Source: Rhizaria sp. SCN 62-66 | Lineage: Eukaryota | DNA: 20,000 nt | Reading direction: 5' to 3' | Assembly (NCBI GenBank): GCA_001724265.1 | Contig: MEDY01000240.1 | Location: 51,126 to 71,125, forward strand | Shown here: positions 2-20,000 of the stretch, piece after piece | Numbering within the stretch: position 1 is the first letter of the stretch | Layout: each line of letters opens with the position of its first letter | Position numbers and translations under genes: made by a program | The notes under the pieces: model-generated | What the model was told of the DNA's origin: nothing | The model's database searches: none | The model's input: only the letters and a program-made list of their open reading frames with translations

Positions 2-3000
2 GGAGAGCGCAGTGACCAGGAGCAGCGCGGCGCGCAATCGGGGCAGCGCCGCGCGGAGCAGGCGGGTGGCCTCTACCTGCAAGGACACCGCGGCCGCACA
101 ACTGACGCCATCAACGCCGGCAGCCTTAGCGTTGTCGCCTACGGCAGCACTCGTGTCGTTGCAGTCGAGAACGTTGTTATTGCAACTGTTGTCTGTTGTT
201 GAGGTGGGGTGATCACGTGACAAGATCGGGGCCGTGAAGACTGTCTGCTTCGGTGCGTACAAGCTTAGGCCAGCGCTGCTACCGCCACTGCCCCAACCAC
301 CACTCGCGTTCACGCTGCGAGAATGTGTGTTTGTGCAGGGCTTGAATGTTGCGTTTAGACTTGAGGCAAAACCTGTCGCGCCAAAAGGTGATGATGCTAC
401 GGCCGTCAAAGCTGTACCCGAACCGGGGTTGCTGCCGTTGCGCAATGATGAAGCCTTCACACTGGCTGCCGTAGCGGCAGTACTCAGAGAGCTTAGCAAG
501 TCGTCAAAACTAGAGTTGCTGGCGTTGGTGCTTTGATTGGGACTGTCTAAAGTCTCTAAGCGGGCGACAACGCCAAAAAGCCCTGCATGTACATCATCAG
601 CAGACTTTTCGCCCAGAGCGTCGACAGGGTTAGTGATGGGATTAAACGAGTCAGTCGCGGAGCTAGAAGCGGGCGATGCTGCTGCTAAAGCTGAAGCCGA
701 TGCGGCCGAGACCAAGGCAGAGTGCGAGCCTGTGACAGCGGCAAAGTGCAGCCAGTTAGTATCATCTCCGAACGCGACCACACTCAACCCGCTCCGGCCA
801 TTGAGGCTGTGGCCACTGCCCGCCGCAGCGCCGCCGGCGAGGCTCACGAAGGAGAACTTGCGGTAGTTGTCGCCGCGCGCGAGCGGCATGCGATGCTGCG
901 GCGGCGGCAGCATGAAGCTATGCGCGGGCCGGCCGGAGCGCAGAAAGGACTCGATCAGCAGCCTGTCGCGCGCGCGGGCCTGTTGCTGCTGTTGCTGCTG
1001 GAGCTGTTGTTGCTGCAGCAAGGCAATAGTCTGGGCTTGCGTTAGAGCTGACGCCGGTAAACGCGGTTGCTGCTGTTGTTGCTGTTGTTGTTGTGGATGC
1101 TGCTGATGTTGTGCCTGGGATTGAACACTGCTTCGCTCGAAAGCACGGGGGCGGGAGCTCGAGCGAAGTGCCATATCGTGCAAGTGCCTCGCGGGCGCCG
1201 GCGTCGGCGCGTACAGACTCGAGACGGCGCCCGTGGCCAGGTCAAACGCGATCAGCGCAAGCCCCGCGGTTTGGGCCACGAGCACCGACGGCCGCTGCGG
1301 GTGCGTCGCCGCGCTAAGAACGCCAAAGCCCGCGGAGGCGAGCGCTGCGGCCGCCGTGGGGGAGAGCAGCGGCGGGGGTGGCAGCTGGCCGGGACCGAAG
1401 CTACTGGCAGACATTGCCGCCGTTGCCGCTGTCGCTGATGTGAAGGCCGATAAAGAAGCGCGAGAGGGGGCTGCGGTGGCGGTGACGGCTAAGTCGGTGA
1501 GCAGGCGACGGCCGCAGAGCCAGGAGCGGCTTGACTTCAAGCTGTCGAGAGCCATGACGGCGGAGACGGCAGCTGCAGAAGCTGCTGCTGGCGCCATGTG
1601 AGCCGTATCATGCGCTGCAGCGGGGGCTAGGTGACTGTGAGAAGCTGTGTTGAGTTTACTGTGATACGAGGCAGGTGGGGGATATACGCACAGTTCCACA
1701 CGACGGGGATCGACATCAGTAGCATCAGCTGAATCATTGCTCTTTGGAGTGAAGCCGTCATTATTCATAGACTTTGATTGAAAGTAAAAGTAGTCGTCAT
1801 CGTCGTCATCATCGTCGTCATCGTCATCTCGCATGTTCTCTTTCTTGCCCCCCGTCGTACCGCAGCCGCCGCCACCACCGCTCTCCAGGTACAACGCGCG
1901 GCCCGCCCGCGCCTCCCGCTCCGCCCACTGCTCCCACGCCACGGCTTCGGCCACAGCGGCCTCCAGCGCCAGCGTCGGCAGGTGCAGCCCGCCGAAGCCG
2001 CCGCCGCCCGCGCCAGAGCCCGCGGCAATGACCGAGAGCCCGAAGGCGCGGAGGTCGAGCACGTCCAGGTGCCCGCTCGCGGTGACCGTGAGCAGCGTGT
2101 GCGAGCTCGACGACAGTAGCGGCGCGACGAGCGGGTGCGACGCCGCGAAACCGGGGCCATGGCTCTAGACAGCATTAGAATGACTGTGCGACAGGCTCGT
2201 GTGCGCTGCGAAGGCTTTGTTGTAGCTCGAACTGAAGATGTCTACCTCGCTACCGCAGTGCATATCATGCCTGCTGCTGGCGCTGGACGGCTCTACATCT
2301 GCGTCTGGGAACACGACCGAGACGATGCGTTTGTCGACGGTGGTCGTGCAGGTGGAGAGCGATGAATGCAGCGATTGCGGGCTCACGCCCCAGACAGACA
2401 TCAGCGACGAGGCCGCCGCGGAGGCGAACGCAGTCGCGGCGGTGCGCGTGCTGGCGCTCGCAGCCGCACTCGCAGAGCTGGTGGCGTTTGAGGTTGAAAC
2501 AGGCGATGACAGACCAGAGTCTCCAGATGCAGTTACGTTTGCAGTCGCTGCGGCTGCTGCGGCGGCAGAGGCAGCCTTCTCCGCCGCGCTTGCAGCCTCT
2601 TTCAGAGCATACTGCGTCCAGCTGTCGACGCTCGGCGCGATACGGTAGTAAATACCGGAGCCAACGCTGGTCACGGAGGACGTAGTGCTTGACCGGAGCA
2701 CATTGTGGCAGCTGGAGGCGACTGCGGTAACGCCGTTAAGCGGCAAGTTAAGCCGCCAACTTGGTGGGGCGGCGGCCGTGAGAGCGTCAGACTGCACCGA
2801 GACGTGGGCGGCGTTATTGTTTGTGCTGAAGTTGCTATCCGCGCTGGCAGTGTGGTGCGTGTGAGTGTGGCTGTTTGTGCGTGTGTTCATGTTGTTGTCT
2901 GAGAATAAACTGTACTCGTCATCGTCGTCATCGTCGTTAATCGCGCTACTGCTGCGGACAAATCCGCCCCGAGCGCCTACACCGCCGGTATAGTTCGTCC

Positions 3001-5806
3001 CCGCAGCAGAATTAGCACGGATGCCGGCGGTGCTGTTCATTGCGCTATTACTGTTGCTGTTGCTGTAGCGCGATGTAAACACCGGACTCGACCGCCCACT
3101 GCTCACACCGGCGGAGTTCGCGCCGCCCCCGCCGCTGTTGTTGTTGTTGTTACCGCCAAGCAGCAGCCTGTGCGCAGTGCTCACAGTCTCCTTGTAGGCG
3201 GGCATGCGCACGTCCCAGACGAGCGTGTGGCCGCCCTCGGTGCCCGCGACGACAACGGCGGGCGCGTGCGGCGTGGCGGCTAGTGCTGTGAAGCGCGTCG
3301 TTGTGTTGTACAGCGAGGACGGCAGCAGCAGCGTCGTGTACGGCCGCAGCGACATTGTTGGCGCCGTCGCCGTCGTCGGCGCCGCGCTGGGAAAGCGCAC
3401 CGTGACGGTGCCGTCTGCGCGATCGCCCACGCTGCCAAATATATCGTCATCATCATCACTATCATTGCTGTCGTCGTCTTTAACATGAACGGAGTTGTTG
3501 CTGTGGGAAGTTGCGAAAGAAGCGTTCTGGACAGTCGCATCAATAACATTTTTGTAGTCGCAGGCCGTGGTATATGCTGACTGTGATGGCGCGAGCAGCT
3601 GGGAGCTTGTGTTCGCAACCGCCTTACCAGTCGCGATATTCAAGCACTGCTGATGGGTACTAGTAACACTGTTCGTGTTTGCAGTGTCAGCGGACGCGTT
3701 ATCGACAATGGACATCAGTGAGTCCCACCGGCTATGCTCACAGTCACCAGTTAGATCAGCGCTACCTCTTAGAGACTCGCTGTGACTGCTGCTTAAAGCA
3801 CAATCGTCAACAGTCGGTGCAAGCACGGCGCCGCGCGAGGCGACGAAGCGCAGCAGCGCGCCAGTTGTCACCACGTCGGCATCGATCGCGGCGACCGCGG
3901 CAACAGGAGACGGTGCAGCGTCAGATGATGCATTTTGCGAAATTTGTTGTGTCGATTCGCGGATTCGCGCCAGAACAACACGTGAGTCGCTCTGGGCACT
4001 GTTTAAACCAGGTGATGTTGTTGTGACTAAACAACGCCTCTTGTTGTGCGAGAACAGTTGGGTATCGTCGTCTTCAATGTTGTCGTCTTCGTGCGCATCG
4101 TGAGCGACGGTGACGGCGGTACTCAGTAGCAACCGCCTCCGTCGCTGCTGGAGCTTCTCTAAACGAAAGCCGTGCCTCTGTCGCTGCAGCTGCCCCACGC
4201 TCAACGCGTAGCTCGACGCCACGTGCGCGCGGCCGCTTGCGACCGCGAAGCCCTGCACGAGCCGTAACGTCTCCCGGCTGCCGGCGCCCACAACGCTCGT
4301 GCGCCCGGCCAACACCGCAGCGCCGGACGCAGCCACAGAGCCCTGACCGCTGTGGTGACCAGGTGTGAGTGTCAGCATAGAGTTAATGTTGGCTATCGGG
4401 TTAGATAGGAATGATATGTCGTAAATATAGGCCGCTTTGGACGAAAACCCGACGACTGCGAGCAAACCGCCTTTGTCTGCTCCAAAGCCACCAGTGCAAG
4501 CACTTAGGTTAGAGCCAAGTGTAGCACTGATATTTTTATCTATGTTTGAGTCAGCTTTACCACTGGTGCCGCTGGTTGTGTTGCTGTAGCGAGGGGACAT
4601 CCCCGTAGCAACAACAGCAGCGGGTGCGGGCAAAAAGCGCATCGCTGTGACTTTGCTGCCAATGCTAAACGCAATCGCCGCAGTCGCGCCTGCGCTGGCA
4701 GCAGTGCCCGCATTTGTGACAGGGCTGGCTGCAGCATTAGTTGCAGCCGGGCCTGAAACCAGCGGCTTCAGCGCCTGGCTCGCCCCGGTCTCAGCACCGA
4801 TCGCACTTGCGCTCGCAGCGCTAATACTGCTGTTGGGATTATGCGACGGGAATACAGCGCTGTTGAGCGTCGCCTCAGCGTGTTCGCTGCCGTCCCAGCC
4901 GTTGTCCTCAACACTGCATTTGCCCTTAGCAGTCGCGTGACGAGTGCGGAAACTTGTACCAAAGCGAATTGAGTGTTCTTTTAATACAGTCTCAATCGCG
5001 CCTGCAGCCAGCTCGCGCAAAGTCACAGAGCTACGCCGTAAACCTGCATTGTTGGCACTGGCTGCACTCCCACTTACACTCGAGACTGAGGTACCTACAT
5101 TGAAGTCAGTCCTGCTCAGACCACGACTGTTATCGTCGCCAATGCAGCCATCCTCCGCGGCGGCGGCGCGGTGCACGGCCGTGGCGAGCGGCGTTGCGGC
5201 GATCGCGAGCCCGGGCGCCGCGTGCGTGTCGGCAAGGAAAAGCAGGTGCCGTACAACGGCGTTCTCGACGGCGGCGGCGACGAGGCGGCCGTCGCGCACG
5301 CCGAACTCGCGCAGTAGCGACACAACGCGGCCGCAATTCAGCGCGGAGAGGTCCAGCTGCGCAAGCACCTCGCTCGGGGGGCAGAACGGGAGCGCGGAGG
5401 CCGCGGGCGCGGAAGCAGCGGCGGTGGCGGAGCTAGAAGAGGAGGGGGGAGAGCAGAGGAGCTCGCGCTGCACCACGAAGTCCATGTGGGTACGCGCGTC
5501 GCCAATAACCAACTTGGATAACGCGTTGGCAACGTGGGTAATGCGCGCGCAAAAGTCTTCGTATGCATTTTCAAATGAATACACCTCGATCAAGCCCGCG
5601 TACGTCGCAGATGCCAGGAGGGAGCCATCCGGCGAGAAATCCAGCGCGATTACGGGGCTTTCATCAGCGCCGGAGAAGCGCGACGCGTTTGACAAGCCAC
5701 GTGGGGTAAAAAACCATGGCATAAGACGGTATTGAGAAGCAGCGTCTACTGCGGAAGGGAGAGGCGGGCCGAATGGGACGGCGGCGTCATGGCCGCAGAT
5801 GTCCAT
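2..5806 (-). CDS. Large WD40/beta-propeller repeat protein with long low-complexity insertions; 3'-partial (runs off the window), at least 1935 codons, one in-frame TAG at 2165-2167
   Basis: The track ORF 2165..5860 stops at TAG, but manual translation of the same frame from 2164 down to 2 (721 codons) finds no stop. WD40-like blades lie on both sides of the TAG: SPVIALDFSPDGSLLASATYAGLIEVYSF (5573-5659), FTALAATPHAPAVVVAGTEGGHTLVWDVR (3206-3292), LLTVTASGHLDVLDLR (2048-2095) and VLSAATHPQRPSVLVAQTAGLALIAFDL (1238-1321). The first in-frame ATG is at 5806; the true 5' end may involve an upstream exon. Confidence 0.75.
980..1110 (-). repeat. CAG/CAA trinucleotide tracts encoding poly-Gln in the WD40 protein
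   Basis: Plus-strand (ctg/ttg)n runs translate on the minus strand as QHQQHPQQQQQQQQQ and QQQQLQQQQQQQ, in the frame downstream of the TAG. Confidence 0.85.
1793..1828 (-). repeat. GAC/GAT tract encoding poly-Asp (12 residues)
   Basis: Plus-strand (gtc/atc)n in the WD40 gene frame, with variation confined to synonymous third positions. This supports coding downstream of the TAG. Confidence 0.8.
2165..2167 (-). other. In-frame TAG inside the WD40 gene (putative recoded or read-through codon)
   Basis: The minus strand reads AAT GCT GTC TAG AGC CAT GGC CCC. The frame is open for 1213 codons before (from ATG 5806) and at least 721 codons after, with no drop to intergenic AT-richness. Confidence 0.7.
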
Positions 5807-5815
5807 CAGGAGCCT

Positions 5816-5951
5816 CTGCGGGGGCAGGGATAAACAGATATAAACATGGGATTTAGACAATATAATTACATACTATAGTATGAAAGTCACAATCCTATTC
5901 AATAAAGTTGGATCATTTCAATAGACGGATCCTGTGATGTACATCACTCAC
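5816..5951 (-). other. Candidate spliceosomal intron at the 5' end of the WD40 gene
   Basis: On the minus strand it starts GTGAGT (5951-5946), has an AT-rich body, and ends in a pyrimidine tract TTTATCCCTGCCCCCGCAG (AG at 5817-5816). Its 136-nt length is similar to the intron in the neighbouring gene. Confidence 0.5.
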
Positions 5952-6128
5952 TGCGATGAGGGTGAACAGAGCGCGAAAGCAAGACTCGCCGCTTGCCAGT
6001 CGCTGGTGGTTGCTGGCAGGGGGGTCTCCCAACGGCTCGATCGGATCGCGAACTTTGTTTTCAAATCTCGTTGCCTTAACATCCGTGTAATTGTCTGCCA
6101 GGCAATTGCTTCGGATTTTTGTGTAAGT
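5952..6128. promoter_or_regulatory. Compact divergent promoter / 5' leader region between the WD40 and C2CD3-like genes
   Basis: Head-to-head genes with ATGs at 5806 (minus) and 6129 (plus). Inferred from position only; no motif identified. Confidence 0.35.
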
Positions 6129-9100
6129 ATGCAAACACAGACATTTTCCCTGCCTCCCGGAGTGCGTGGGGACGTCTTGGGTGAGATCGCCCTGACGATC
6201 GACCGCGTGCAGTGGGCAGTCAAGGGCAGCAGCAAAGTTGGTCTTCCCGCAGGGCCAGTCTTTGTCCGCGCGAAATGGTGGGGTGACGAAGGCGTGAACG
6301 GCGCGTCTATTTTCCTCCCTGCTACATACCCGTTGCGTCCTTCACAACAAGACACTCTCAAAAACACCATTGTGTACGGTGTTCGTGGCGACATCAGTCG
6401 CTACCTTTCTGGTTCGTCCCTCTTCTTTCTCTTGCTTCATGTAATGACAACTTCCACTCTGACAAATGAGCACATATAGTTCACTAAATGTGTTATTTTA
6501 TTCTCACAATGCGTTATACTCTGGCTTGTGTTTATCTTTGTCCGAAACTCTCTCCTCGCAGACATGAAGCTGCTGGTGTGCGACGTCTTCCCCCTCGAAG
6601 CCTCCTTCGACGCCGCGGCCGTGCGCCGCGAGAGCTACAAGAAGGCCTCCCGCATCCTATGGCCGAACCGCCGGCTGCCCGCGACGCCGGCGCCCGCGCC
6701 GCTGGCCGTGGCCGTCGCCGACCTCACCACCTTCGTCGACCTCCTCTCGCAACGCGACAGCAACACAAGCAAGGCCAACGCAGCCAACGCCACTGCTGCT
6801 GCGGATACAGCGCTGCCATCGACGAGCATCTGCATTGACGTGCCGATTGTGCAGGCCACGCGCGTCCTGGGCCAGCTTTCGCTGCACCTGGCATTCACGC
6901 CCTTGTCGGGGCTGCCGCAGTTGCTGGCCCCGGGCCCCGCCGCCGCCGCCAAGGCCGCCGCTGCCGCCGCTGCCGCGAAGGGCCAGGTCAGGGCGGGCGC
7001 TGAGGCCGCGGCCGCGCTGGGGGCGGCGCAGGAGCACCCCTTCGACCAGTTCCCTACTGTAGCTACTGCTGCTGATCCCGCCATCAACACTAACACTTCC
7101 GCTGCGACGGCGGCGGTGGCAAGCGCACCTCGCGAGAGCGCCGCTGGCGGCAACGCTGCTGCTGCGGCTGCTGGTATGTGGCGGCCGCAGTCGCCGACGT
7201 TGCAGTCGCCGTCGCCGCGGGCGCCTCTCAATGGCCAAGGCCTCCACGATGTCTCCACACAGCATCAGCAGCACCAGCAGCAACTGCAGCAGCAGCAGCA
7301 GCAGCAGTATACTGGGAGCAACAACGGCAGCATGACCGAGACGGCGAACCTGCTCTTGACCCCCCGCCCTCTCACCCAAGGCCAGCAGCAGCAACAGCAG
7401 CAGTATGCCCAGCAGCAGCAGCAGTATCAGTCTCAATCTCACTACAGCAGTGACGCGCAGCTGCTGCAGTCCCCCCAGCCCCAGCATCTCTCCTCGCAGC
7501 TCAGCAACAACAACAGCAGCAGCGGCGGCATCAACGTCAACGCAAGCGTGTCTGTGAGCAGCCGCGACCGCGATCATGGCTGCGACCGCGAGCGCGCGTC
7601 GGCTTACGGCGCAAACCTGCCGCAGATGCCCCTCCCTCAGCCCCAAGACCAACAACAGCAGCAGCAACAACAGTAGCAGCACGCAGCGAGCTCTAGCTCT
7701 AGCTCAAGCGCGAGCGCTACCTCTGCCTCAGGTGCCCGCTCTGGCACTGGCTCTGCGCTGGACTCGCTGTTCCCGCCGATGCCGCTGAGCGCAAGCGCGC
7801 ACCCCGACCTGCTCGCCCTGCGGCTGACCGTGGAGCAGGCGTCTCTCTTCGCCGCCGATGCCGCACTCGCCTCGGCAGTCTACACGGGCCGCCTCCCCGC
7901 ACCCGCGCTCGCGCCCCCGCCCCTCGCTGCGCTCTCCGCGGCGGCGTCCGCCGCGCCCGGGTCGATTGGCGCGCGCGCGGCGGCGGCGGCGACGTTCGCG
8001 ACGGGCTACGTCTACGCTACGATCACACCCTGCCCCTCGGCGCTGGCCACCGCCGCCACCACCGCCGCCGCGCGCGCCGCCGCCGACGAGGGCTACAGCA
8101 GCAGCGTTGCGTTTAGCAACGGCGTTTACGCGCCCGCGCCGCCGCTGGCCGCAATCCCGCTCGACTCTGCGCCGTTCGTGACGCCTCTCGTGCCCGCGCG
8201 GCCGCACCCACGCTGGCTCAGCACCAACACAGTTCCGCGCATCTTCTCCGCGCACCTGCCCGCAGCGCTGCGCGGAATGCGGCTCCGCTTCCGCGTGCAC
8301 TGGTGCCCGCCGCACGTCGCGGCGATGCTCCGAGTCAGCGGCTACCTGCCGCCGACCGTGGGCGGCCATAGTACGGACGCGGGAGCCGAGTCGACTGGCT
8401 CTAGCCCCCTCGACGCGCACACCCGCGACGCCACCGCCGTGGCCGTGACCGTGGCCGGGGTCGGCGCCGCGAGCACGACGTGCCACGCCACCGCCGCCGC
8501 CGCGGGTGCAGCGGCCGGCGCCTATTACGGCCCCCACCAGCAGCAGCAGCAGCGCGGGGGGCTGGGGCGCGGCGGATGCCTGCGCCCGGCGGCATGCGGC
8601 TGCGGCCACTGCGGCTGCCCTGTCTGGGCCATCTACCGCCACGGCAGCAACTCTAGCTCTCGCATCTCCGATGCTGACCCCAGTAGTGCGAGCAGCAGCG
8701 CAGCGGTGGGTGCGGCGGGTCCTGTGTCGCGGCTGCAGCGGCTGCTGGACTCGGCCACTGCCCCCGGCTCCGGCTCTGGCTCTGGCTCCAGTTTTGGCTC
8801 TGGCTTGGGAGCGAGCGCTAGCGGCGGCTCGAGCTGGGGCGGCTACAGCATCGTCCGCGCCGACGCCCGCCCCCTCACGACGAGTGCCTCTGGCCCCAGC
8901 CAGCACGGGGGCTCGCTGTTCGCGCACGCCGCCGAGGGACTGGCGACGCAGTTGGCTACCGCGCTGCGCGGAGTCGCCGCCGCGCGCGCCGTACCGCCCC
9001 TGCTCTCCCCGCTGCCGCTGCCCGCTGTCACCACGACGACGACTGGCGGCGCGAGCGGCGGCGATGTGGAGTGCGTGGCCGACACGGACGGTGGCCGCGG

Positions 9101-12100
9101 CGTGCGCGTGTACGCGCGCGTGCTCATCGATGACAACCTCTGCGACCGCGACTACTACATGCGCACCGCGACCGCCGCCGCCAACGCCAGCAGCGGTAGG
9201 AGCAGGGCCGCAATGTGCAAGCGCGATAGTGACGAGGTTGACGTGCTGTGCAGCAAGTGCTGGCAGCAGAGCACGACGCGCCTCCCCACCGCCGCCGACC
9301 TCGCCGGCGTCGTCGGAAACGGCGACTCGACTAGCTTTGAGGTGCTGTGCGCGTACTGCAACGCGGCGTCGGCGAGCTTGCTCCCGCTGCTGCCCGCCGC
9401 AGCTGTGGACGTGCGCGCGCTCAGCGTGACACTGGGCGAGGCCGAGCTCACTCTCGACGCCGCCGCCGTGGCCGGTGTAGCCAGCCTGCAGGAGCGCGTG
9501 CGGCTACACTACCTCACCAAGGAGCACAACAAGAACAGCAGCAGCTATGGCAACGCCATTGATGACGACGGCAAGGACGCTGAGCCCAAGGTCGGGGTCA
9601 GGGTGCTCGCGTCGACCATCCTTACGCTCAAGGAGCCCGTCGCCCCCTGTCCCACTCATAGCGGCAGCGCCCCCCGCTGCCCCGCGCAGCCCGCGCGGCC
9701 CGCGGCGGCGGCTGCGGAGACGACAGGCTCTTTGGCCGTGACGGTTACTCTGGCGCCGCTGGAACACGCGGCCGCGCTGGCGCGGCTCGAGGCGACTGCC
9801 ATCCAGGCTGAGCGCCGTAGTGACGCGGCCGAGGCGGGGGCCGTCGCGCTGCCGGGCGTGTGCGTGCCCATGCGCCTCACCGCCGACGCCGCGCGCATGC
9901 ACCGCGCTGCGCTCAGCGACGCGCTCAATAACAATAACAACAGCAGCCCCAACAGCAATAACAGCGTGAGCATCACTCTCGAGACGCTGCTGAGTAAGGT
10001 GCTGCCGGCGGTGCGCGCGCAGGCCGCCGCCGCCGCCGCCACGGCCGCCGCGGTCGACCATCGCTCTCGCAACCCCCTCAACCCCGCCTCTGCCGCTGCC
10101 TCTGCTTCTGCCGCGACAGCTACAACTGCAGCGGCGGCGACTGGGACGCACGCAGCACCCGCGGCCACGAGTACCCCGCGCGTGCCCGTCGCGGTGCCGG
10201 GCCGCGTGCTGGTCCCGTGGCCCCGACTGACGCTCAGCCTCGCCGACCTGCGGCTGCCGCTGTCCTGGGCCCGGGCGCCCGCACTGGCCGCGCTCGCTCT
10301 GAGCTTCTTCAGCGTCAGCGTCTCGCACCCCGGACTCGCCCCGCCGCGCCAGCCCTGGCTCGTGCCCGCCGGCAGCGTCGGCGCGAGCGCCAGGAATGTC
10401 GGTTGCGCTAGCGGCAGCAGTGACCCCGGTGTCGGTGGGAGCGGCGGCGGGCGCGCGCTGGCGCTGCAGTCAGGCTGGCGGCCGCCCATGGCCACGCACG
10501 CCGTGCGCGGCGACATCGTCGTCGCCGAGTACCCCAGTCAAACCAGCCAAGCCAGTCAAAACATCAACGCCAGCAGCAACGCGGACGACGCGAAGACTGA
10601 CAGCTCTAGTGTTGAAGTCGCCTCTGCGAAAAGCAAGACTGCTGTCGCCGTTGCTGGCGCGACTGCCACCGCGCCAGTGCCCGTACCCGTGCTCTGGGTG
10701 CCTCTGCGCGCGGCCACGCAGCTTACCCCGCTTGCGGCCACTCCCTCCGCTCACGGTCACGGTGAAGAGATTATGGTGACTATGAGCGAGCTGCGGGCCA
10801 CGCTGGCCGCGCTGCGCCGCGCACCACTGCTTCTCACGGTCACCATGTCGGACTCGCCATTCGCGCCCATCTCCACAGCAACCACTGTCGAGGCTGACGG
10901 CGACTGTGCGGACAACGGCGACACCGATGGCGAGAGTGGCGACTGTGAGCATACGACGCGTGACCACTTGCAGCCGCGGCAGCAAGTGACCGTGAGCGCT
11001 CTGGACGGCTCCATCGCGCTCCCACCCGCCCACAGCCGTTCCGGCGCGCACGGCCCCGGCTACGGGCCCGCGCACAGCACCGCCGACGCCGCCGCAGCCG
11101 CGCCCACGGCCACGCCCGCGATCGGCTCGCTGCAGGACCCGTGCCCCGGCGTGCCCGTGGACTTCGACGCTGTCGCTTACCTCGCCGCGCGCCCCGGCAC
11201 GTACACCGGCTCCATGGGGACTTACACCGGCGACGGCGAGGGCGCGGAGGGCTATCAGTACGGCAACGGCGTGCCTGCGCAGTGGGACGCGCGCGGGCGC
11301 CGCGTGCACAACCCCTTCGTGCGGACCACCGCGCCCTTTTCCGCCGCGCCGCTCCGCAAGACCGCGGCCGCGGACAAGCTCGCGCTCCACAACAAGAGCA
11401 ACGCCTCCGCGGGCGTCGGCAACGGGGGCTTTCACGGCAATGGCAACGGCGGGAATAGCAACGCGGGCATCATGTCGGCCGCTGCGGGTCACTCCGCCTC
11501 CGGTGCTAGTTCTAGCTCTAGTTCAAGTGGCGCTTCTGTGAATCCCCCCGGGATGCTGTACGGCCGCCGCACCGGCTACGACGTGGCCCCTGCGCACCTG
11601 GCACGCCTCGCCGACACCGTGCGCGACTGCGCCGTCCGCCGCGGCCACGGCCTCGGCCACGGTGACGGCGACGGCCAAAGCGGGGAGGACGAATGGGCTG
11701 TGGACGCGGCGACCGCGGCCGACACGCTCGACATCCACCACCACGACGGCGACGGGAATGTCGCTAATACTGGCCGTGAGTTCGCAACTGTGGCCGCGCG
11801 CGGCGGACGTCTGCTGAAGAACACTGACTTCGCGACCACTCAGCATGTGTACGACGTCATCACCGGCGCAACCTACGAACGCAAGCTCCGTGGCGAGCAG
11901 CCACTGCGTTCTGTTGGCAGCAGCGGCAGCAACAGTAACGTGACTGCAAGCGGCGTCAAGACGGGCAGCAAGGCCATCGCCGACTGGCTCTGGAAGGAGA
12001 AGGTGTGCGCCAGCGGCGTCTTCACCGTCGCCAACGCTAACGGCAGCGGCAGCGGCAGCGACAACGGCGCCGCGATCACTGCTGCCAGCACTGCTAACAG

Positions 12101-15100
12101 CAGCAGCAGCAACAGCAGCAGCAAGGCCAGCAGCGGCGCCAGCGTGTGCAGCGGGTCCAACACGCGCGAGATCGCTACGTGCGCCGTCTCCGCCAGCGAG
12201 CTCGCGGACGCGCTCGTCGCCTCCGTGGCGATGCGGCTTAACTTGAAGGACCCGCGCCAGCTCGACCGCGAGTACGGCTTGACTTTCATCTCGGACCCCC
12301 GTCGCCAGCAGCGCAGTACAAGCGTCTCCTCGCAGTCCAGCGGCGCGAGCAATAGCGACGGCAACGCCGCGTTTGGCGTGAACGCGCTCAGGCGCCGCGA
12401 GACCGCGATGGCGGTGGCGCTGCTGGCGGCGCCGCCGTCGCCGCTCGACGCCGCCGCGGCGGCCGCGGCGAAGCGCGAGCCTGTGTGCGTGGGCGCGCTC
12501 GCGCGGGCCGGCGTTGTCGACTACACCGTCGCGCCGTGGGCCGCGGCGGGCGCGGGCGGCGAGAGTGAGACGAGCAAGGCTGCGGCGGCCATCAACGCGC
12601 TCCAGCAGCAGCAAGGCGACGACGGAGCCGCTGTGGCGGCCAACGAGGAACGCAAGCCGGGCTGCCCTGTGACGACGCATAAGCCGCTGAGTGAGGCTGC
12701 GCTGGTGCGGCTTGACTTCAAGATCGACCCCTATGTAGCCGACGGTAGCAGCGGCAGCAAGAGCGTTGAGTCGGTGACTGCGGCTGAGGAACATGAGGCG
12801 TGGGAAGCTTACCTGCAATCGCAACAGCCGCCACAGAAGCCGCAGCAGCAGAAGAGTCAGCTCAACAACTCAATGGCTGCTCCTGCTGCCAACGCTGCGA
12901 ACGTTTCCAGTGTTTGCGATGAGAGTGAGCTGAGTGCCTTCATCCTGCCTCACATGCCCGCCTCAAGTGACTGCAATAGCAACAACAACGGCAACCTCAA
13001 CGGCTCTATGTTCGAGCGCGAGTTGAACGAAGTCACCGCTTTAACCCGTGCAGTTCGGAGCCTCATCTCCAACACACAGCAACAGCAGCAGCAGCAGCCG
13101 CAGCCGTCTCAGGGGCAGTTTGCGCCACAACAGCAGCATGCGCCGCGCGAGCGCGAGCAGTCTCTGAACGCGACGGCCGCGGTGGGGCCCGGCGTGCACA
13201 TCACGGTCAATGGCAGCTTCACAAGCGACCACAGCCACCACCACCACCACTACCTCCGCGACCGTGACCGTGACCGCGAGCGTGAGCAGATGTGGCCGAG
13301 CAGCTCCAGCAACGCCGCTGCCGCGCACGGCCAGCCTGCTCCGCCCAGCGCAAGCGCCAACACCGGTGCTGCGAGCTACGGTCTGGCTGGCCCCGCGTCC
13401 CGCCGTCCCCCCACAGCGCCCACAAACGCTGCGTTCCCCGCCGGCCCAGCGGCGGCCGCGCCCTCTGCGAAGCTGTGCGCGACAGCGCTGATCAAGGCCG
13501 CCAACACCAACGCGACGCGCGCACGCGCGCAGAGTCTCGACACGGGCGCGGAGACGGGCTTCGGCGCGCGCCACAGCCTCGGCGCCGGCGTAAGCCTCTC
13601 CGTGTACGAGGACGACGGCGATCGTGGCCCCCGCATGTCGCCGCCGGAGGCCGTGGGCTCGATCATCACGCCGCCGCAGAGCTCCCCGTCCAACTCGCAG
13701 TACAACACCAGCAACAGCAACTTTCTGAGCGGCAGCAGCGGCACCGTCGGCGCCGGTGTAATCTTGATGGCCGCGGGTGCCGCCGCGGGCGCGCACGACG
13801 ACGCGCACAGCGACACCAAGTCATACTTCCGCCCGCCCTCGCCGCTGACGGCGCCGCCGAGCGTGCCGCAGTCGCCCTGCAGCGTCGCCAAGACCGTCGC
13901 TGGCACAGATGCCGTCTCAGTCGTCGCCAGCAGCGTCGCAGGCGGCTGGGCGGCGCAATCCGCGCTGCCGCTGCCGCTGCCGCTGGCGCAGCCGGCGCTT
14001 ACGCCGGGCGCGGGTGCGGGTGCGCCGCCGCACGTGCCGCTGCCGCTGCCGCCGACCGCGAGCAGCAGCAGCAACGCAACGGTCACTGACGCGGCCCCTG
14101 TGCCTGCTGATGCAACCAGCAGCCCCATCGGTCCTGATACTTCTGAGTCTGCCGTCGCTCCTGCTGCTGCCACTGCCGGCACGCCCACTCCCGTGGGCTT
14201 TGTGTGCGGGCGCGCCGGCAGCAGCATCGTGCCCGGCGGCGTCGGCTCCATCGGCTCCATCCCGCGGCCCCCCAGCGCGAACCCGCTGGCGCAAGCGCAC
14301 AGTGTCGATGGCAGTGCGAATGCCTTGGTGCTGAACCCGGTTGCCGCAGTAGCCGGCAGTCCTGCGCCTGTCGCTGGCGGCGCCAGCACCGCGTTCACCG
14401 GCGGCGTCGGCTTTACGGTGATCGGCGGCTCGTCGCTGTGGAAGCGGCCTGCGAGCCTCATGAGCCGCGTCGCTTCGCAAACGCCAACGATGGCCGACGG
14501 TGCCGACAATAATCGCAATATTGGCGACGCAGTCTCCCCAGTCCCGACTGCAGTGCCTGTCGCGGGTGTCGTGCCCACAACGACTGCAACTGCAACTATG
14601 GCCGACGCTGCTGGTGCGAACGATTCTGCTTCTGGTGTTCAGTTGCAAGAGCATATGCTTCATGCCGCGCAACCGACAGTGTCGCAGCCCACCGCCGTCG
14701 GTGCCGCCAGCCTTCCGATGCCTCTGCCGCCAACGCCTCTGTCGTCGTCCTCCTCCTCATCCTCGCCCACCGACGCTGCCCAGTCCGACGCCGCCCGGTC
14801 CGCCGCCGCCGCGACTGTTGCCACGGCGGCCGCGTCCCCCACGCTGCCCAGCGGCAGCGACGACGCGGCCTCGCCGCAGCTGCGCGCGCACCCGCACGCG
14901 CATTCGCAGCAGCAGCAGCAGCAGCAGCAGCAGCCGTCGTCGTCGTATGTGCCCGGCACGGTCTCGAGCCCAGTCGCGGCCAGCGCGGGCGCCAGTGTCT
15001 TCGGCCTTGGCAGCGGCGGCGTCGACAGCGTACCCGGGTCCCCCGCCGCCGCGGCCGTGCCTATCTCGGTGCCGCCGCTGCCGCTGACGAGGCTCGTCGG

Positions 15101-16838
15101 CGCCGCAGGCGGCTATGCCGCGTACTCTGGCGGGCTCAGCGCCGCGGGCGGGGCTCAGCAGGCCGCCACCGCCCACCCCAGTCACGCCCACAACCACGCG
15201 CAGGCGCAGGCGCAGGCGCAGGGGCAGGCGCTGGGACAGGGGCTCGGTCACCCGGGCCAGAGCCAGACCGAGAGGCACGTCGCCACAAGCGCGAGCGCCG
15301 CCACAAGCAGCAGTCTTGCGGCAAGCGTGAGCAGCGGTGCAGTGCCGGCTGCTGGCGTGGATGCGGCGACGACCGCTCCGAATGGTAACGGCGCTCAAGA
15401 CGCCCCCCTTGGTGCTGCGGCAACGGTCAACGACGAGGATGCGTTTTACAACGCGGGAGAAGAGACCTTCCGCCGCCTCTACAGCTCGCTCGGCCCCGAG
15501 ACCGACATCAACGCGGACGCTGACGGCGACAAGGTTGGCAACGGTGCCGCTCTTAGCCCGTCTGCCGGCGCAGACCGCGACTTCGACCCGCTGGAGGACA
15601 TCGCGGCCGTGCTGGCCCGCGTCCGCGCGCGCAGTGTGGCCGCCACGCACGCCGCTGCCGTGTCCGCTGTCGCGCTGACCGACGGCGACCCCGCGGACCC
15701 CGCGCTGGCCGCGCTGCCCTCGCCGGTCATGCGCAGCAGCAGCGGCAGCAGCGGCGACGCTAGCGGCCGCGGCTACGGGCGCAGCTACGGTCACGGTGGC
15801 AGTCACGGTGTTGGTCAGAGTAGTGCTGTTGCGGCTGTTGCTAAGATCAGTCGGATGGTCAGTTCAATTAGCCCTGCAGACAACGGTCACGGCTACAACA
15901 TGGGCTACGACAGTGGTCGCAGTAGTGGCAGCAGCGGCTTCAGTAACGGCAGTCAGAACAACGACTTCGCTCCGCACAGTAGCAGCAAGTTTTTCAAGAA
16001 TTTAAGCACTTCATCTGACAACAAGTCTAAGGGGCGCGTGCCGAACCCTTATCTTGCTGATTATCACCAGAGCCCGCGCTCGTTTGCCTCCGCCTCTGCT
16101 GCCGCGCTGAGCAACAGCATCGGTCACAACGGCAGCAGCTCTAAGAACGGCTCCAGTGTGTTCGATAGTCGCCTCAGTGGCGCCAACAAGCACCAGTCGC
16201 ATTTTAATCCCCACGCTAGTAAGTACGGTGACCACGATGAGAACGCGTCACCTCGCTCGTACGGCCACAATAACAACAACTACGGCAGCCACGCGAGCGC
16301 CATTGTTGACTCTGCTCGCGGCAACGGCAACGGAATCGAGGCTAACTACGACGATGACGACGCGACGAGCGATGTGCTGGCCAACTGGCGTGCCAAGAAC
16401 GCCGCCACCACGCGCGCCGCTGCCGCTGCCGCTGTTGCTGCTGGTAATGGCAACGACGGCGAGCCAGTGAGCGTGACGCGCATTCTGGCCGCGGCCGACG
16501 CTGGTCTGGGCGTGTCTTCCCCCTCAAACCTTAGCTCGCAATCCAGCGACGGCGGCCGCCGGTACAACCACGTCGGGAGCCCAGGGCCGCTCAGCGGGCG
16601 CAGCAGCGGCAGCAGTGACGGGCTGGGCGGCGGGTTGGGCGTCAGCCCCCGCAGCGGCAGCAGCGACAGCGGCGTTGTCTGCGCCGCGGACCCGCTGAGT
16701 GACCGTGAGCACTACTACGGCGGATTCGGCCGTGACCGTGACCGTGGGCATGCGCGGTACGACAATCAGGAGCAAGTGGAGCTGCTGTCGCCTCGCAGCG
16801 GGGTCATCTCGCCGCTGAGCGGCGTTATGGACTTCTAA
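6129..16838 (+). CDS. C2CD3: C2CD3-like centriolar/ciliary C2-domain protein; join(6129..6411,6562..16838), about 3519 aa, one exonic in-frame TAG at 7674-7676 (ends at TGA 16850 if TAA is also sense)
   Basis: The spliced N-terminus SLPPGVRGDVLGEIALTIDRVQW..VFVRAKWWGD..NTIVYGVRGDISRYLSDMKLLVCDV..RVLGQLSLHLAFTPL matches the N-terminal C2 domain of C2CD3 as I recall it (LPP.V.G, V.VRVRWWGE, YLTDM..LVLEV, LGELQVSLALEPL). Track ORFs 5934, 6528 and 7779 share one frame; 6528 and 7779 are separated only by one TAG plus 34 sense codons. Later beta-strand islands (LALRLTVEQASL, TLGEAELTL, GSLAVTVTL) suggest further C2 domains. Confidence 0.8.
6412..6561 (+). other. Phase-1 GT-AG spliceosomal intron, 150 nt
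   Basis: G|GTTCGT...CTCTCTCCTCGCAG|AC. About 39% GC (59/150 by hand count) against GC-rich exons. Splicing restores the motif RYLSDMKLLV. Confidence 0.85.
7260..7679 (+). repeat. Several CAG/CAA poly-Gln tracts; the last contains a TAG
   Basis: QHQQHQQQLQQQQQQQ (from about 7260), QQQQQQQYAQQQQQ (from about 7383), and CAA CAA CAG CAG CAG CAA CAA CAG TAG CAG (7650-7679). Confidence 0.85.
7674..7676 (+). other. In-frame TAG within a poly-Gln run of the C2CD3-like gene (putative UAG=Gln)
   Basis: Eight Gln codons precede it and one follows; the frame then stays open to 16836. Confidence 0.75.
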
Positions 16839-16850
16839 TGCAGTGTGTGA

Positions 16851-17024: not shown

Positions 17025-17404
17025 TCAGAGCCCTTCAATCTTCGCAAGGAAATCGGCAAGGTCGTCCCCGTCGCCACTGCCAGTCCCGGCAGCCGTCTTG
17101 GGCTTCGGTGCCGACGTCATCGCAGCCGCCTGCGCCGCCCTCGCGCGCGCCACTGCCAATTCGCCAGTCGCAGTCGGCGCGCTTGCGCCCGCGCCCGCGC
17201 CCGCGGCGGCGGCGGCCTGGGGGCGCTTGGCCGCCAGAGACACCGCCGCGGGCACGAGCGCCGCGATGGCCTTGCTAACCGTCGGAACGGTCGGCGCTGC
17301 GGGGGCGGGCTTGGGGGCCGGCCCCGCGACATCCGCCTCAGTCGAAGGAGCAGTCGCGGTCGCGGCAGCATCAGTAGTCGCAGCAGCGCCAGGCGTGCTA
17401 ACGT

Positions 17405-17435
<31 letters not shown>

Positions 17436-19223
17436 CTTGTTCTTGTTGGCGTAGGGGTTCACCATGATGTGCCCCGCGCCCGCGCCGCCCGAGCCCGCGC
17501 CGCCGCGGCTGCGCTCGGCGGGGCCCAAGTACGCCAACAACGGGTCAACGGTCTCGGCCGCACCGGTGCCGGCGACAGCGCGCGCCCGGTGCCGGCGCTG
17601 CCGCGCGCTCGTCTCGTCGTCGTCGTCCGCGGGGGCGCTGGCGTTACTGTTGCTGTTGTTGCGTTGGGCGGCTTTGTTGGCCTTCCACTGCGCGCGCGCC
17701 TGTGCCGAGAGCGCGAGGGCGGCCTCGACGCCGGCGGACGCGGAGACGGGACCACCAACGATAGGGCCGCCGACAACGGGGCCGCCAACAACAGGGCCGC
17801 CAACAACGGGGCCGCCCACTACAGGGCCGCCGACGACGGGGCCAGAGACGGGGCCGCCGACGACAGGGGCGAGAGTCTTAGCGTGAGTGACGCCGTCGTA
17901 ATGACCGCTGCCATCATCGTCGTCGTCGCTGTCGTAGTTCGACACAATCGCCGCCCCAACACTCGCGCTCGCCGTGGCGCTCGGCTGAGTCGCCGCAGCT
18001 GCAGCGGTAACGGCAGAAGTGGTCGGGGGCAACTCAGGCCCGGCGACAGCACTCGCGCTCACAACACTCTGCGGTCGCGATTGTGACTGCTGGGCTTGCA
18101 GGTGGGCCCTCAGCACGGCCGGCGGGGGCGGCGGCGGCGGCGGACCTTGCCTCGGGCCATGAGGCTGCGGCTGGGCCTGCAACCGAGTCTGAGCCTGTGG
18201 CTGAGGCTGTGCGTTAGGAAACTGATTGTGCGCGCCGCGTCCCCTATGGTCCGCACCTCCGTACGCGCCCCCACGTGCTCCCCCATGTGTTACCCCATGC
18301 GTACCGGCCCCCGCACTGGCGATGGCTGCGGCGGCGTTCTGCCTGCGCTGCTCCGCGAGTGCCAGCGCCGCGCGAGCCGCCGCCGCGTCGTTGGCGGCAC
18401 GCGCGGCGGCCACGCAGTCCTCTGGCCGCAGCCAAGGCGGGAGCGGCACATTGCGCCACGGCGGCAGCGCCAGCAGCGGCCGCGCGTCCGCCGCGAGAAG
18501 CGAGTCGTCCTCGGCGCGAGTCCAGATGTTGTGGCAGCCGGCGCGGGCGGCGGCGGCGCGCGCGGCGGCGGCGTCGGCGGCGGCCGCAGCGGCCTCGGCC
18601 TCGGCGTCGGCCTTGGCCTTGGCGGCGGCGGCCGCGGCCGCTGCGGCGGCACCGCGCTTGGATGTCGCGCTCTCGGCGTCCGAGTCGTCAGAGGAGAACA
18701 AATCGGAGTAGTCCCCGTCGTCTTCTTCGTCGTCATCGTCGTCCTCGTCCTCGTCCTCGTCGTCGTCGTCGCCGTACTCGGTGGTGCGACCCTTGCCCCT
18801 GCGAGCCGTTGGCTGGCCGGAGCGCAGCTGCGCCAGCCGCCGCCGCTTCGCGCGCTGCTCCTCCGTCAGCACCGAGTCGCTGTCGTCGCCGTCGTCGTCG
18901 TCATCGCCGTCGCCCGTCGCACCGGGGCCCTTGCGGGCGCCCGCGGGGCCCGTGGCGGCGGCGGTAGCGGCGTCGCGCTCAACGGCCGCCTTGCGCAGCG
19001 TCGTCAGCTTCTTCATCTTCAGCGCGGCCACGGCGTCGTCCTTGTTGTGCACGAGCGCCACGCGCACCTTATCCATCTCGGCGTCAATGTCAGACACGGT
19101 CTTTGCGCTCCACTTGGCCGACTGCTGTTCCTGGCGCTCTTGGCGGCGCTTCTTCGCCTCGCGCTGGCTCGCCGCGCGACGGGCTTTAAGCGCGGGGTTG
19201 ATTTCGCGCTTATTTGATAGCAT
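17025..19223 (-). CDS. WBP11: WW domain-binding protein 11 (NpwBP/SIPP1)-like pre-mRNA splicing factor, 732 aa, intronless, ends in TGA
   Basis: The N-terminus INPALKARRAASQREAKKRRQER..KTVSDIDAEMDKV..KMKKL resembles the Wbp11 domain (recalled as MNP.D..RK..RKRELKKNK..R). It has acidic tracts and polyproline (QGPPPPPPPP). The C-terminal DDLADFLAKIEGL resembles the recalled WBP11 end DD.YE.FMKEMEGLL. ATG at 19223 with AT-rich flanks. Confidence 0.8.
17745..17870 (-). repeat. 15-bp coding minisatellite encoding (GGPVV) about 8 times
   Basis: The translation is PVVGGPVSGPVVGGPVVGGPVVGGPVVGGPVVGGPIVGGPV; units differ mostly at third codon positions. Confidence 0.9.
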
Positions 19224-19885
19224 CTACGCGTATAATAAACAAATAATATATGTAACGTGCGTGAATATTAGTGAGATGTTGCGAAAACGCTGTTGTCGGA
19301 TTTTACAGTCTCTTAGTTTTCTTCAAAGCAAACGATCATGACAACCTCCTCGAGCTCCCTCGAACTGAACGATAACAATTGTCAGTGATATACAACGACG
19401 GTGGAGCATGTGTTCCAGAGCTTTCTCTATGTTCCATATGTTGCAGCTTTGATTATGCGTACAAAAGCGAGTGTCTCTCAACCCTCAAGCAAACACGACG
19501 GGAGGAATCGGAAGGAATGGCCTGTCTGGATTCTCGCTCTGTCCACAACTGGGTTAACCGGATTCCCAACCCACAAGCGACGTTGTTTTCAGTCACACTC
19601 TACTCATAGCGTTTCTGGGAAACGACTGTTTTGATTAGATACTGTTCACTATTGTCAATCTCTGCGCACGAATCCAAAACCTCGCCCTCTCGATGCAGCA
19701 ACGACCGTCAGACGATGTGGATTCCTTCCCCTGATAATAATTCGTATATTAGTGGTACAAAATCGTTGATATTGAACAATAACCGAACATAAAACAATTC
19801 TAGATTCTGTATCTTCAAACATCATTTGTATATCTTCTGCAATCTGCTGAATTATTGCATTGTATTATTGTGCGTCGTCCTCGTG

Positions 19886-19958
19886 CATCACAAACATGTG
19901 ATAACACGGGGGTCGCGAATTGGGCCGTTTGCCTCTCCCACCCCACATGTTTGTGATG
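19886..19958. repeat. Perfect 15-bp inverted repeat with a 43-nt spacer
   Basis: CATCACAAACATGTG (19886-19900) is the exact reverse complement of CACATGTTTGTGATG (19944-19958). Confidence 0.85.
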
Positions 19959-20000
19959 TTGAGGCACCCCCCATCCCCAATAAACATCCCTAGATTACCA

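Follow-up and report, generated by a model that had tools for sequence, protein, structure and literature searches.

Can a eukaryote with very GC-rich coding sequence read the stop codon UAG as an amino acid? The question is raised by a stretch of 20,000 nucleotides (hereafter the window) of contig MEDY01000240.1 in GenBank assembly GCA_001724265.1 (Rhizaria sp. SCN 62-66), positions 51,126 to 71,125 of the forward strand. The window holds three tightly packed genes, here named A, B and C. A preliminary description of its sequence had noted that two adjacent long genes each carry exactly one exonic in-frame TAG, and had proposed that UAG is a sense codon, likely for glutamine (Gln). We located the two codons in genes A and B (TAG-A and TAG-B, respectively; Table 1) and found that both are real and that both lie inside coding sequence. 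Recoding of UAG is the best single explanation of these data and our leading reading, but it is not established: a code change is a genome-wide property, and two codons are in hand. We give about even chances to the proposition that UAG is translated as an amino acid here, probably as Gln.

Two in-frame TAG codons and no other lesion

The gene models total 6188 codons (1935 for the part of gene A inside the window, 3520 for gene B and 733 for gene C) and require no frameshift. The in-frame stops across them are the two exonic TAGs, the terminal TAA of gene B (16836-16838) and the terminal TGA of gene C (17025-17027), and the earlier statement that internal TAA, TGA and frameshifts are lacking is thus borne out over all 6188 codons. 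At the level of stop-to-stop open reading frames, the minus-strand frame 5872..2 is interrupted by TAG-A alone, and the plus-strand frame 5925..16838 is interrupted by TAG-B and by a TAG at 6477-6479. This additional TAG lies in an AT-rich GT..AG segment (6412-6561), which we infer to be an intron, and was not counted as exonic.

Gene A runs out of the window, and its continuation is represented by database proteins. P0003 (1213 amino acids, aa) terminates exactly at TAG-A, and P0002 (1545 aa) starts at the first Met after this codon and extends 956 residues past the window. Given that these proteins are two pieces of gene A, its full length is about 2891 codons (1935 in the window and 956 from P0002), with a single TAG. 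Altogether, two TAGs occur in about 7144 codons, i.e., about 0.3 per 1000 codons, with no other lesion, and a single cause covers both sites. If UAG is a sense codon, this one mechanism explains both TAGs as well as the lack of other lesions.

The preliminary description had also placed one TAG within a CAA/CAG run. This is TAG-B, which is preceded by eight CAA/CAG codons and followed by CAG. Such a Gln-run context is found for 22.6% of CAG codons and for 9.5% of all TAG-producing mutations. On this one context, Gln is probably the residue for which UAG would stand.

Occurrence of the TAG codons in independent metagenome assemblies

Metagenome runs from wastewater, bioreactors and activated sludge contain contigs that match the stretch 1200-9200 of the window. 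Four runs were compared over the whole window: X1 (share of window words 1.00; the probable source of the contig), X2 (0.92), X4 (0.67) and X5. Runs X2 and X4 come from two studies other than that of X1; the study of X4 also supplied X5, a polyA RNA library. Three additional runs (X6-X8) had small shares of window words and were not used as habitat evidence.

Contig pieces of X1 that contain TAG-A (1796-7256) and TAG-B (7316-10012) showed no differences from the window. A contig of X2 (7316-8423) crosses TAG-B and a contig of X4 (2026-2582) crosses TAG-A, in each case with more than 31 bases on either side of the codon and again with no differences, which confirms in the DNA of other studies what had been read from the window. 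No other letter was recorded at either TAG in the four compared runs. The strain in X4 departs slightly from that of the window: its listed pieces, 5857 bases in all, show 12 differences. The in-frame TAGs are therefore genuine in genomic DNA.

It could be argued that CAG or some other sense codon has been misread as TAG, since the window comes from a metagenome assembly and many foreign contigs accumulate over the repeat-rich CAG tract around TAG-B. However, because contigs of other studies give identical letters at both TAGs, assembly or sequencing error is very unlikely. This explanation is already largely refuted, and we leave it next to no weight.

Runs labelled bioreactor metagenome and wastewater metagenome contain this organism at 99-100% identity over long pieces, as do two runs of the study whose RNA run carries the label activated sludge. 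Its detection in three studies dated 2015 to 2025 makes it a recurrent resident of such systems.

Coding sequence on both sides of each TAG

Beyond TAG-B the reading frame remains open for 3053 codons. Beyond TAG-A it is open for 721 codons to the edge of the window, or for 1677 codons when P0002 is included. The other five frames of the same stretches have stops at 0.5-4.9% of codons, and at these rates the chance of an open run of 3053 codons after TAG-B is below 1e-8. In addition, GC content at third codon positions (GC3) is 0.67-0.91 directly on both sides of each TAG. No AT-rich spacer is present at either codon, whereas the real intergenic regions have a GC content of 0.35-0.48. Given the long open frames beyond the TAGs, the steady GC3 and the lack of an AT-rich spacer, neither TAG-A nor TAG-B is a gene end. 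The TAGs in the DNA, their coding context and the continued frame are all observed directly.

Could the TAG codons be removed by splicing?

An in-frame TAG resembles a phase-0 acceptor site, and one or both codons might be spliced out in short, frame-preserving introns that look like coding sequence. All frame-preserving GT..AG pairs of 30-600 nt spanning each TAG were enumerated, which yielded 167 candidates for TAG-A and 125 for TAG-B. Examples are GTAGAC at 2245 to CTAG at 2165 (81 nt) and 2192-2163 (30 nt) for TAG-A, and GTGAGC at 7554 to TAG at 7676 (123 nt) for TAG-B. All candidates over TAG-B have a GC content of at least 0.58 and all those over TAG-A of at least 0.47, compared with 0.39 for the clear intron of gene B. 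A GTRNGT-type donor, or either of the observed donors, occurs in none of the 167 candidates for TAG-A and in two of the 125 for TAG-B, both of which are longer than 500 nt and have a GC content of 0.63-0.64. The purine-rich CAA/CAG run before TAG-B lacks a pyrimidine tract (0.33 pyrimidines). In contrast, the bases that lead up to TAG-A, TTCTAATGCTGTCTAG, are rich in pyrimidines and locally richer in AT (GC content 0.51 over 81 nt), a point in favour of splicing.

Coding log-odds compared a codon model with a trinucleotide model of non-coding sequence, and carry a small bias in that the test segments lie within training genes. The 81-nt candidate over TAG-A scored +14.9 bits (37th percentile of gene A windows) and the 123-nt candidate over TAG-B +31.9 bits (20th percentile of gene B windows), whereas the clear intron at 6412-6561 scored -58.7 bits. 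The score of +14.9 bits exceeds the highest value, 14.6, of 228 non-coding windows. These scored candidates fall within the 20th-39th percentile of genuine coding windows and have a GC3 of 0.67-0.79, in an intron-poor genome with one clear intron, AT-rich, in about 6188 codons.

Since the flanks of the TAGs score as coding and the clear intron as strongly non-coding, removal of the TAGs by splicing appears unlikely as judged from composition. TAG-A is the weaker case against it, as the last 20 bases before this codon are locally AT-richer. Taking both sites together, we regard it as decidedly improbable that one or both are spliced out. Among the listed contigs of the polyA RNA run X5 (1796-2145, 8099-8617 and six more), none spans either TAG or the intron; the first ends 20 nt short of TAG-A, and the absence is a gap in cover and not evidence. 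None of the 15 RNA joints listed for this library, in which DNA carry-over is possible, matched a candidate intron.

Sense decoding, gene decay and readthrough

Several observations weigh against sense decoding. It has two codons behind it, and these are rare: at the ratio of TTG to CTG, 0.26, a free synonym of CAG would appear about 51 times where TAG is seen twice, a deficit of about 25-fold. Per codon, UAG is also roughly ten times rarer here than in the fornicate Iotanema spirale. The codon usage of these genes also favours TAG among new stops: it is the product of 60-64% of single-base nonsense changes, and the probability that two random nonsense hits would both be TAG is 0.36-0.41. That neither of the two visible gene ends uses TAG (TAA/TGA in gene B and TGA in gene C), just as had been pointed out, agrees with sense decoding, but two ends are uninformative. 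Both TAGs sit in poorly conserved, low-complexity stretches, and no homologue aligning at TAG-A or TAG-B was found in HMMER and word-index searches. The window contains no tRNA gene and no Rfam match. Strain differences in gene A, four non-synonymous and one synonymous, give no constraint signal. Finally, contigs lose minority variants, and a rare CAG allele could go unseen. In addition to these points, no gene for the release factor eRF1 lies within the window.

Much of this would be accounted for if the TAGs were true premature stops and genes A and B were young pseudogenes, or tolerated truncated alleles fixed in the population, whose downstream parts have not yet decayed. The excess of TAG among nonsense substitutions, the rarity of TAG compared with a free Gln codon and the predominance of non-synonymous strain differences in gene A all agree with decay, and CAG-rich runs are natural targets of C-to-T changes. 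A possible setting is also at hand: gene B is a C2CD3-like centriole gene, and genes for the centriole or cilium might be decaying in a lineage that is losing this structure. Gene C is intact, but in a gene this short the absence of a TAG carries little information. However, decay requires two independent nonsense fixations in adjacent genes, and about 4730 downstream codons contain no frameshift and no second stop. The preliminary description had argued that a TAG-only pattern opposes decay; given how often random hits would both be TAG, this argument is weaker than stated. Moreover, the TAGs are common to samples of different studies and years, with TAG-A present in a strain that differs elsewhere, and the compactness of the genome, in which spacers measure 115-322 nt, argues against 14 kb of dead weight. 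Strain variation also bears on this point. Among 29 tabulated differences, 17 are in gene B downstream of TAG-B, and eight of these 17 are synonymous compared with 26% expected (P = 0.05; dN/dS about 0.4), a hint of constraint that offers modest support. Both coding indels of X4 (+CAG at 14116 in gene B and -15 nt at 17779 in low-complexity coding sequence of gene C) keep the frame, whereas its sole 1-nt indel (-1 nt at 19796) is non-coding. Overall, we consider decay unlikely, though worth keeping in view. Site-specific or leaky readthrough by a near-cognate tRNA under the standard code, or a change of UAG to CAG at the RNA level, would account for both the rarity of in-frame TAG and the downstream frames that are kept open. 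In the readthrough context of plant viruses UAG is followed by CARYYA, whereas the bases after the TAGs are CAGCAC (TAG-B) and AGCCAT (TAG-A). In addition, we know of no nuclear U-to-C editing system, and it is hard to motivate why two unrelated giant structural genes would both rely on inefficient readthrough. An explanation of this kind seems to us improbable. A small part of the probability is given to none of the readings discussed here.

Sense decoding of UAG, as proposed in the preliminary description, thus stands in part: the codons are real, they are exonic by composition and log-odds, and they are not gene ends, whereas the roughly 25-fold deficit of TAG and the lack of an aligning homologue count against it. 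If it is correct, an uncultured, intron-poor eukaryote of wastewater and bioreactors, with very GC-rich coding sequence, would translate UAG, most likely as Gln, and full-length proteins of about 2891 and 3519 residues would be made from genes A and B, respectively. The mechanism would be the one usual for such changes: UAG would be decoded by a tRNA-Gln whose anticodon, CUA, is a single mutation from that of tRNA-Gln(CUG), recognition of UAG by eRF1 would be weakened, and UGA and probably UAA would stay terminators. Because UAG is so rare, either the reassignment would be young, or the codon would be poorly decoded and selected against. Passage of the ribosome, the residue inserted, the tRNA and the change in eRF1 are predictions of this scheme.

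With respect to UAA, the sole in-frame TAA of the window (16836) lies three codons before a TGA, and TGA also closes gene C. The succession of TAA and in-frame TGA in gene B may be an ordinary tandem stop or a hint of TAA readthrough. It is compatible with UAA as a stop, and also with a code in which both UAR codons (UAA and UAG) are sense and UGA alone terminates. The more specific proposal is that a wastewater eukaryote with coding sequence of ~70% GC independently made UAG a rare Gln codon while UGA (and perhaps UAA) was kept as a stop, in a lineage sampled so thinly that for most of genes A and B no homologue is detected in 1.84 billion protein representatives. The reassignment would then have been caught early or be held at low usage. 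This proposal is plausible but tentative, and we put it somewhat below an even chance. To our knowledge, nearly all nuclear reassignments of UAR or UAG occur in AT-biased genomes. Because the coding sequence here is GC-rich, the usual mutation-pressure argument would not apply.

Comparison with known genetic codes

Reassignment of UAG alone had been described as much rarer than that of UAR, with Iotanema and a rhizarian as examples. In I. spirale, UAG alone is reassigned to Gln, and UAA and UGA are stops (Panek et al. 2017, PMC5304391; Fussy et al. 2022, PMC9161772). Like I. spirale, the rhizarian exLh, with 71 in-frame UAG codons in eight genes (PMC5304391), uses the codon much more than the organism of the window. 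The list was a little dated, as additional UAG-specific reassignments are reported in ciliates (PMC11687900, PMC10553269). These show that UAG can change its meaning independently of UAA more often than the preliminary description had assumed.

I. spirale has 204 in-frame UAG codons in 126 genes, many at hyperconserved Gln positions (PMC5304391), UAG at none of 119 complete gene ends, and a changed GTS motif in eRF1. The window is similar in that in-frame UAG occurs within long frames, the two visible gene ends are UAA or UGA, and Gln is the probable meaning. The mechanism, tRNA-Gln(CUA) together with an altered eRF1, is a further likeness, here only predicted. The difference lies in numbers: the window and P0002 provide two UAG codons in about 7144, none at an alignable position, and two gene ends. 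Translation table 6 (UAR = Gln), which is used by ciliates, hexamitin diplomonads, Amoeboaphelidium and some green algae, shares with the locus the Gln meaning, and both gene ends can be read as TGA; unlike under that code, no internal TAA is present besides the terminal one at 16836. Membership in the Iotanema type or in table 6, which is defined by alignment at conserved positions, terminator usage across the genome, a tRNA(CUA) and a change in eRF1, cannot be claimed; the pattern resembles the first and also fits the second.

Condylostoma, karyorelicts, Blastocrithidia and Amoebophrya sp. ex Karlodinium veneficum are similar in that a stop codon is tolerated in frame, but all three stops are involved and their genomes are AT-biased, whereas only TAG is concerned here and the sequence is GC-rich. 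In this Amoebophrya, about half of the annotated transcripts lack such codons (PMC6394959), so that low usage of in-frame stops has a precedent.

Some identities of the organism were considered and dropped. Ciliate macronuclear genomes are AT-rich, and a ciliate was rejected owing to GC content and gene layout, as was a trypanosomatid owing to the intron, in both cases on the traits typical of these groups. The ciliates with UAG-specific codes (PMC11687900, PMC10553269) likewise differ from the organism studied here, whose contig spans at least 72 kb with long close-packed genes on both strands and whose coding sequence is very rich in GC. Amoeboaphelidium was rejected because its genomes have about 40% GC according to Table 1 of PMC10608142, compared with 58-75% here. 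Among the papers listed by a literature search on activated-sludge eukaryotes with altered codes, nothing relevant was found, which does not show that the organism is undescribed.

Gene identities and layout of the window

Coding sequence of the window has a GC content of 58-75% per kb, and short AT-richer spacers separate the genes. Coordinates of all features are given in Table 1.

Table 1. Features of the window. Positions are those of the 20-kb stretch.
Feature	Position	Strand	Remarks
Gene A, giant low-complexity protein with a WD40-like N-terminus	2..5806	-	ATG at 5806; cut off by the window edge at base 2
TAG-A, codon 1214 of gene A	2165..2167	-	Context HSNAV-TAG-SHGPGF
Short spacer (322 nt) separating the start codons of the divergent genes A and B	5807..6128	.	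GC 0.48 for 5873-6128
Gene B exon 1, N-terminal C2 domain, C2CD3-like	6129..6411	+	Pfam PF25339
Putative spliceosomal intron of 150 nt, GTTCGT...CGCAG	6412..6561	+	GC 0.39; in-frame GC3 0.46; log-odds -58.7 bits; boundaries inferred
Gene B exon 2, ends in TAA 16836-16838	6562..16838	+	GC3 0.81
TAG-B, codon 466 of spliced gene B	7674..7676	+	Context QDQQQQQQQQ-TAG-QHAASS
End of gene B: TAA, three codons, in-frame TGA	16836..16850	+	From the sequence
Gene C, WBP11-like, 732 aa, no internal stop, TGA end	17025..19223	-	Pfam PF09429

The first 94 residues of gene B match the Pfam family C2_C2CD3_N (PF25339; E 6.4e-13, 49.2 bits compared with a cut-off of 27), and the match scores 46.7 bits when gene B is read through the intron. 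From general knowledge of this family, a C2CD3-like gene presumably means that the organism has, or recently had, centrioles. As regards further C2 domains, no Pfam family reached its cut-off in the 370 exon-2 residues before TAG-B or in six fragments after it, a search that may fail on a diverged, low-complexity protein. The N-terminus of gene C matches Wbp11 (PF09429; E 1.9e-5, 25.4 bits compared with a cut-off of 24.3), and a homologue search with this gene gave no match.

In gene A, a WD40 repeat (PF00400) was detected at residues 44-76 only, with 19.8 bits compared with a cut-off of 27 (E 1.1e-3). No Pfam family reached its cut-off in the whole in-window protein, in P0002 or in the flanks of TAG-A. 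Atlas feature searches overall gave generic C2 and WD40 leads and no informative taxon; the matches of gene A to WD40 clusters (0.94-0.95) are a lead only. An AlphaFold2 model of 166 residues across TAG-A, made with no alignment, had a mean pLDDT of 35.7 and is unusable.

A HMMER search with gene A among 1.84 billion protein representatives returned two matches, both to itself (P0003 and P0002). Word-index searches with the region around TAG-A found only these two proteins in the near length range and no match among shorter proteins, an absence that is weak evidence, as low-complexity words restricted the candidate sets. No related loci were found for gene A in metagenome, genome and viral contigs, or for gene B in metagenome contigs. 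Apart from its weak WD40-like N-terminus, gene A is thus without a detectable homologue among the 1.84 billion representatives at the level of sequence searches. The scarcity of homologues beyond two Pfam domains suggests a poorly sampled or fast-evolving lineage.

At the start of gene B, GTAAGT immediately precedes the ATG and CACAG follows 12 nt on (6124-6141). The frame is also open further upstream, as far as 5925, and contains another ATG at 5937, so the 5' end given here for gene B is provisional. On the other side of gene C, 115 nt from its start codon, a short GC3-rich open frame (19339-19384, plus strand), MTTSSSSLELNDNNCQ, leads into GTCAGT and then into more than 600 nt of AT-rich sequence (19385-20000; GC about 0.4). 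A fourth gene may begin here, with the short frame as its first exon and the AT-rich stretch as a long intron. Both X4 and the RNA run X5 have contigs that extend into the region 19339-20000.

Implications

Nuclear stop-codon reassignments are rare, and those that split UAG from UAA test how release factor and tRNA pool co-evolve. Should both TAGs be true stops, the locus would be an ordinary one in which a pair of adjacent giant genes has taken the very first step towards decay. Gene calling with the standard code has already cut gene A at its TAG into the database proteins P0003 and P0002, and if the code is changed, the proteome of a recurrent wastewater organism is being mis-annotated. If sense decoding is true, a GC-rich organism with a very rare sense UAG would be a candidate for an intermediate stage of reassignment, which is predicted by theory and has seldom been observed.

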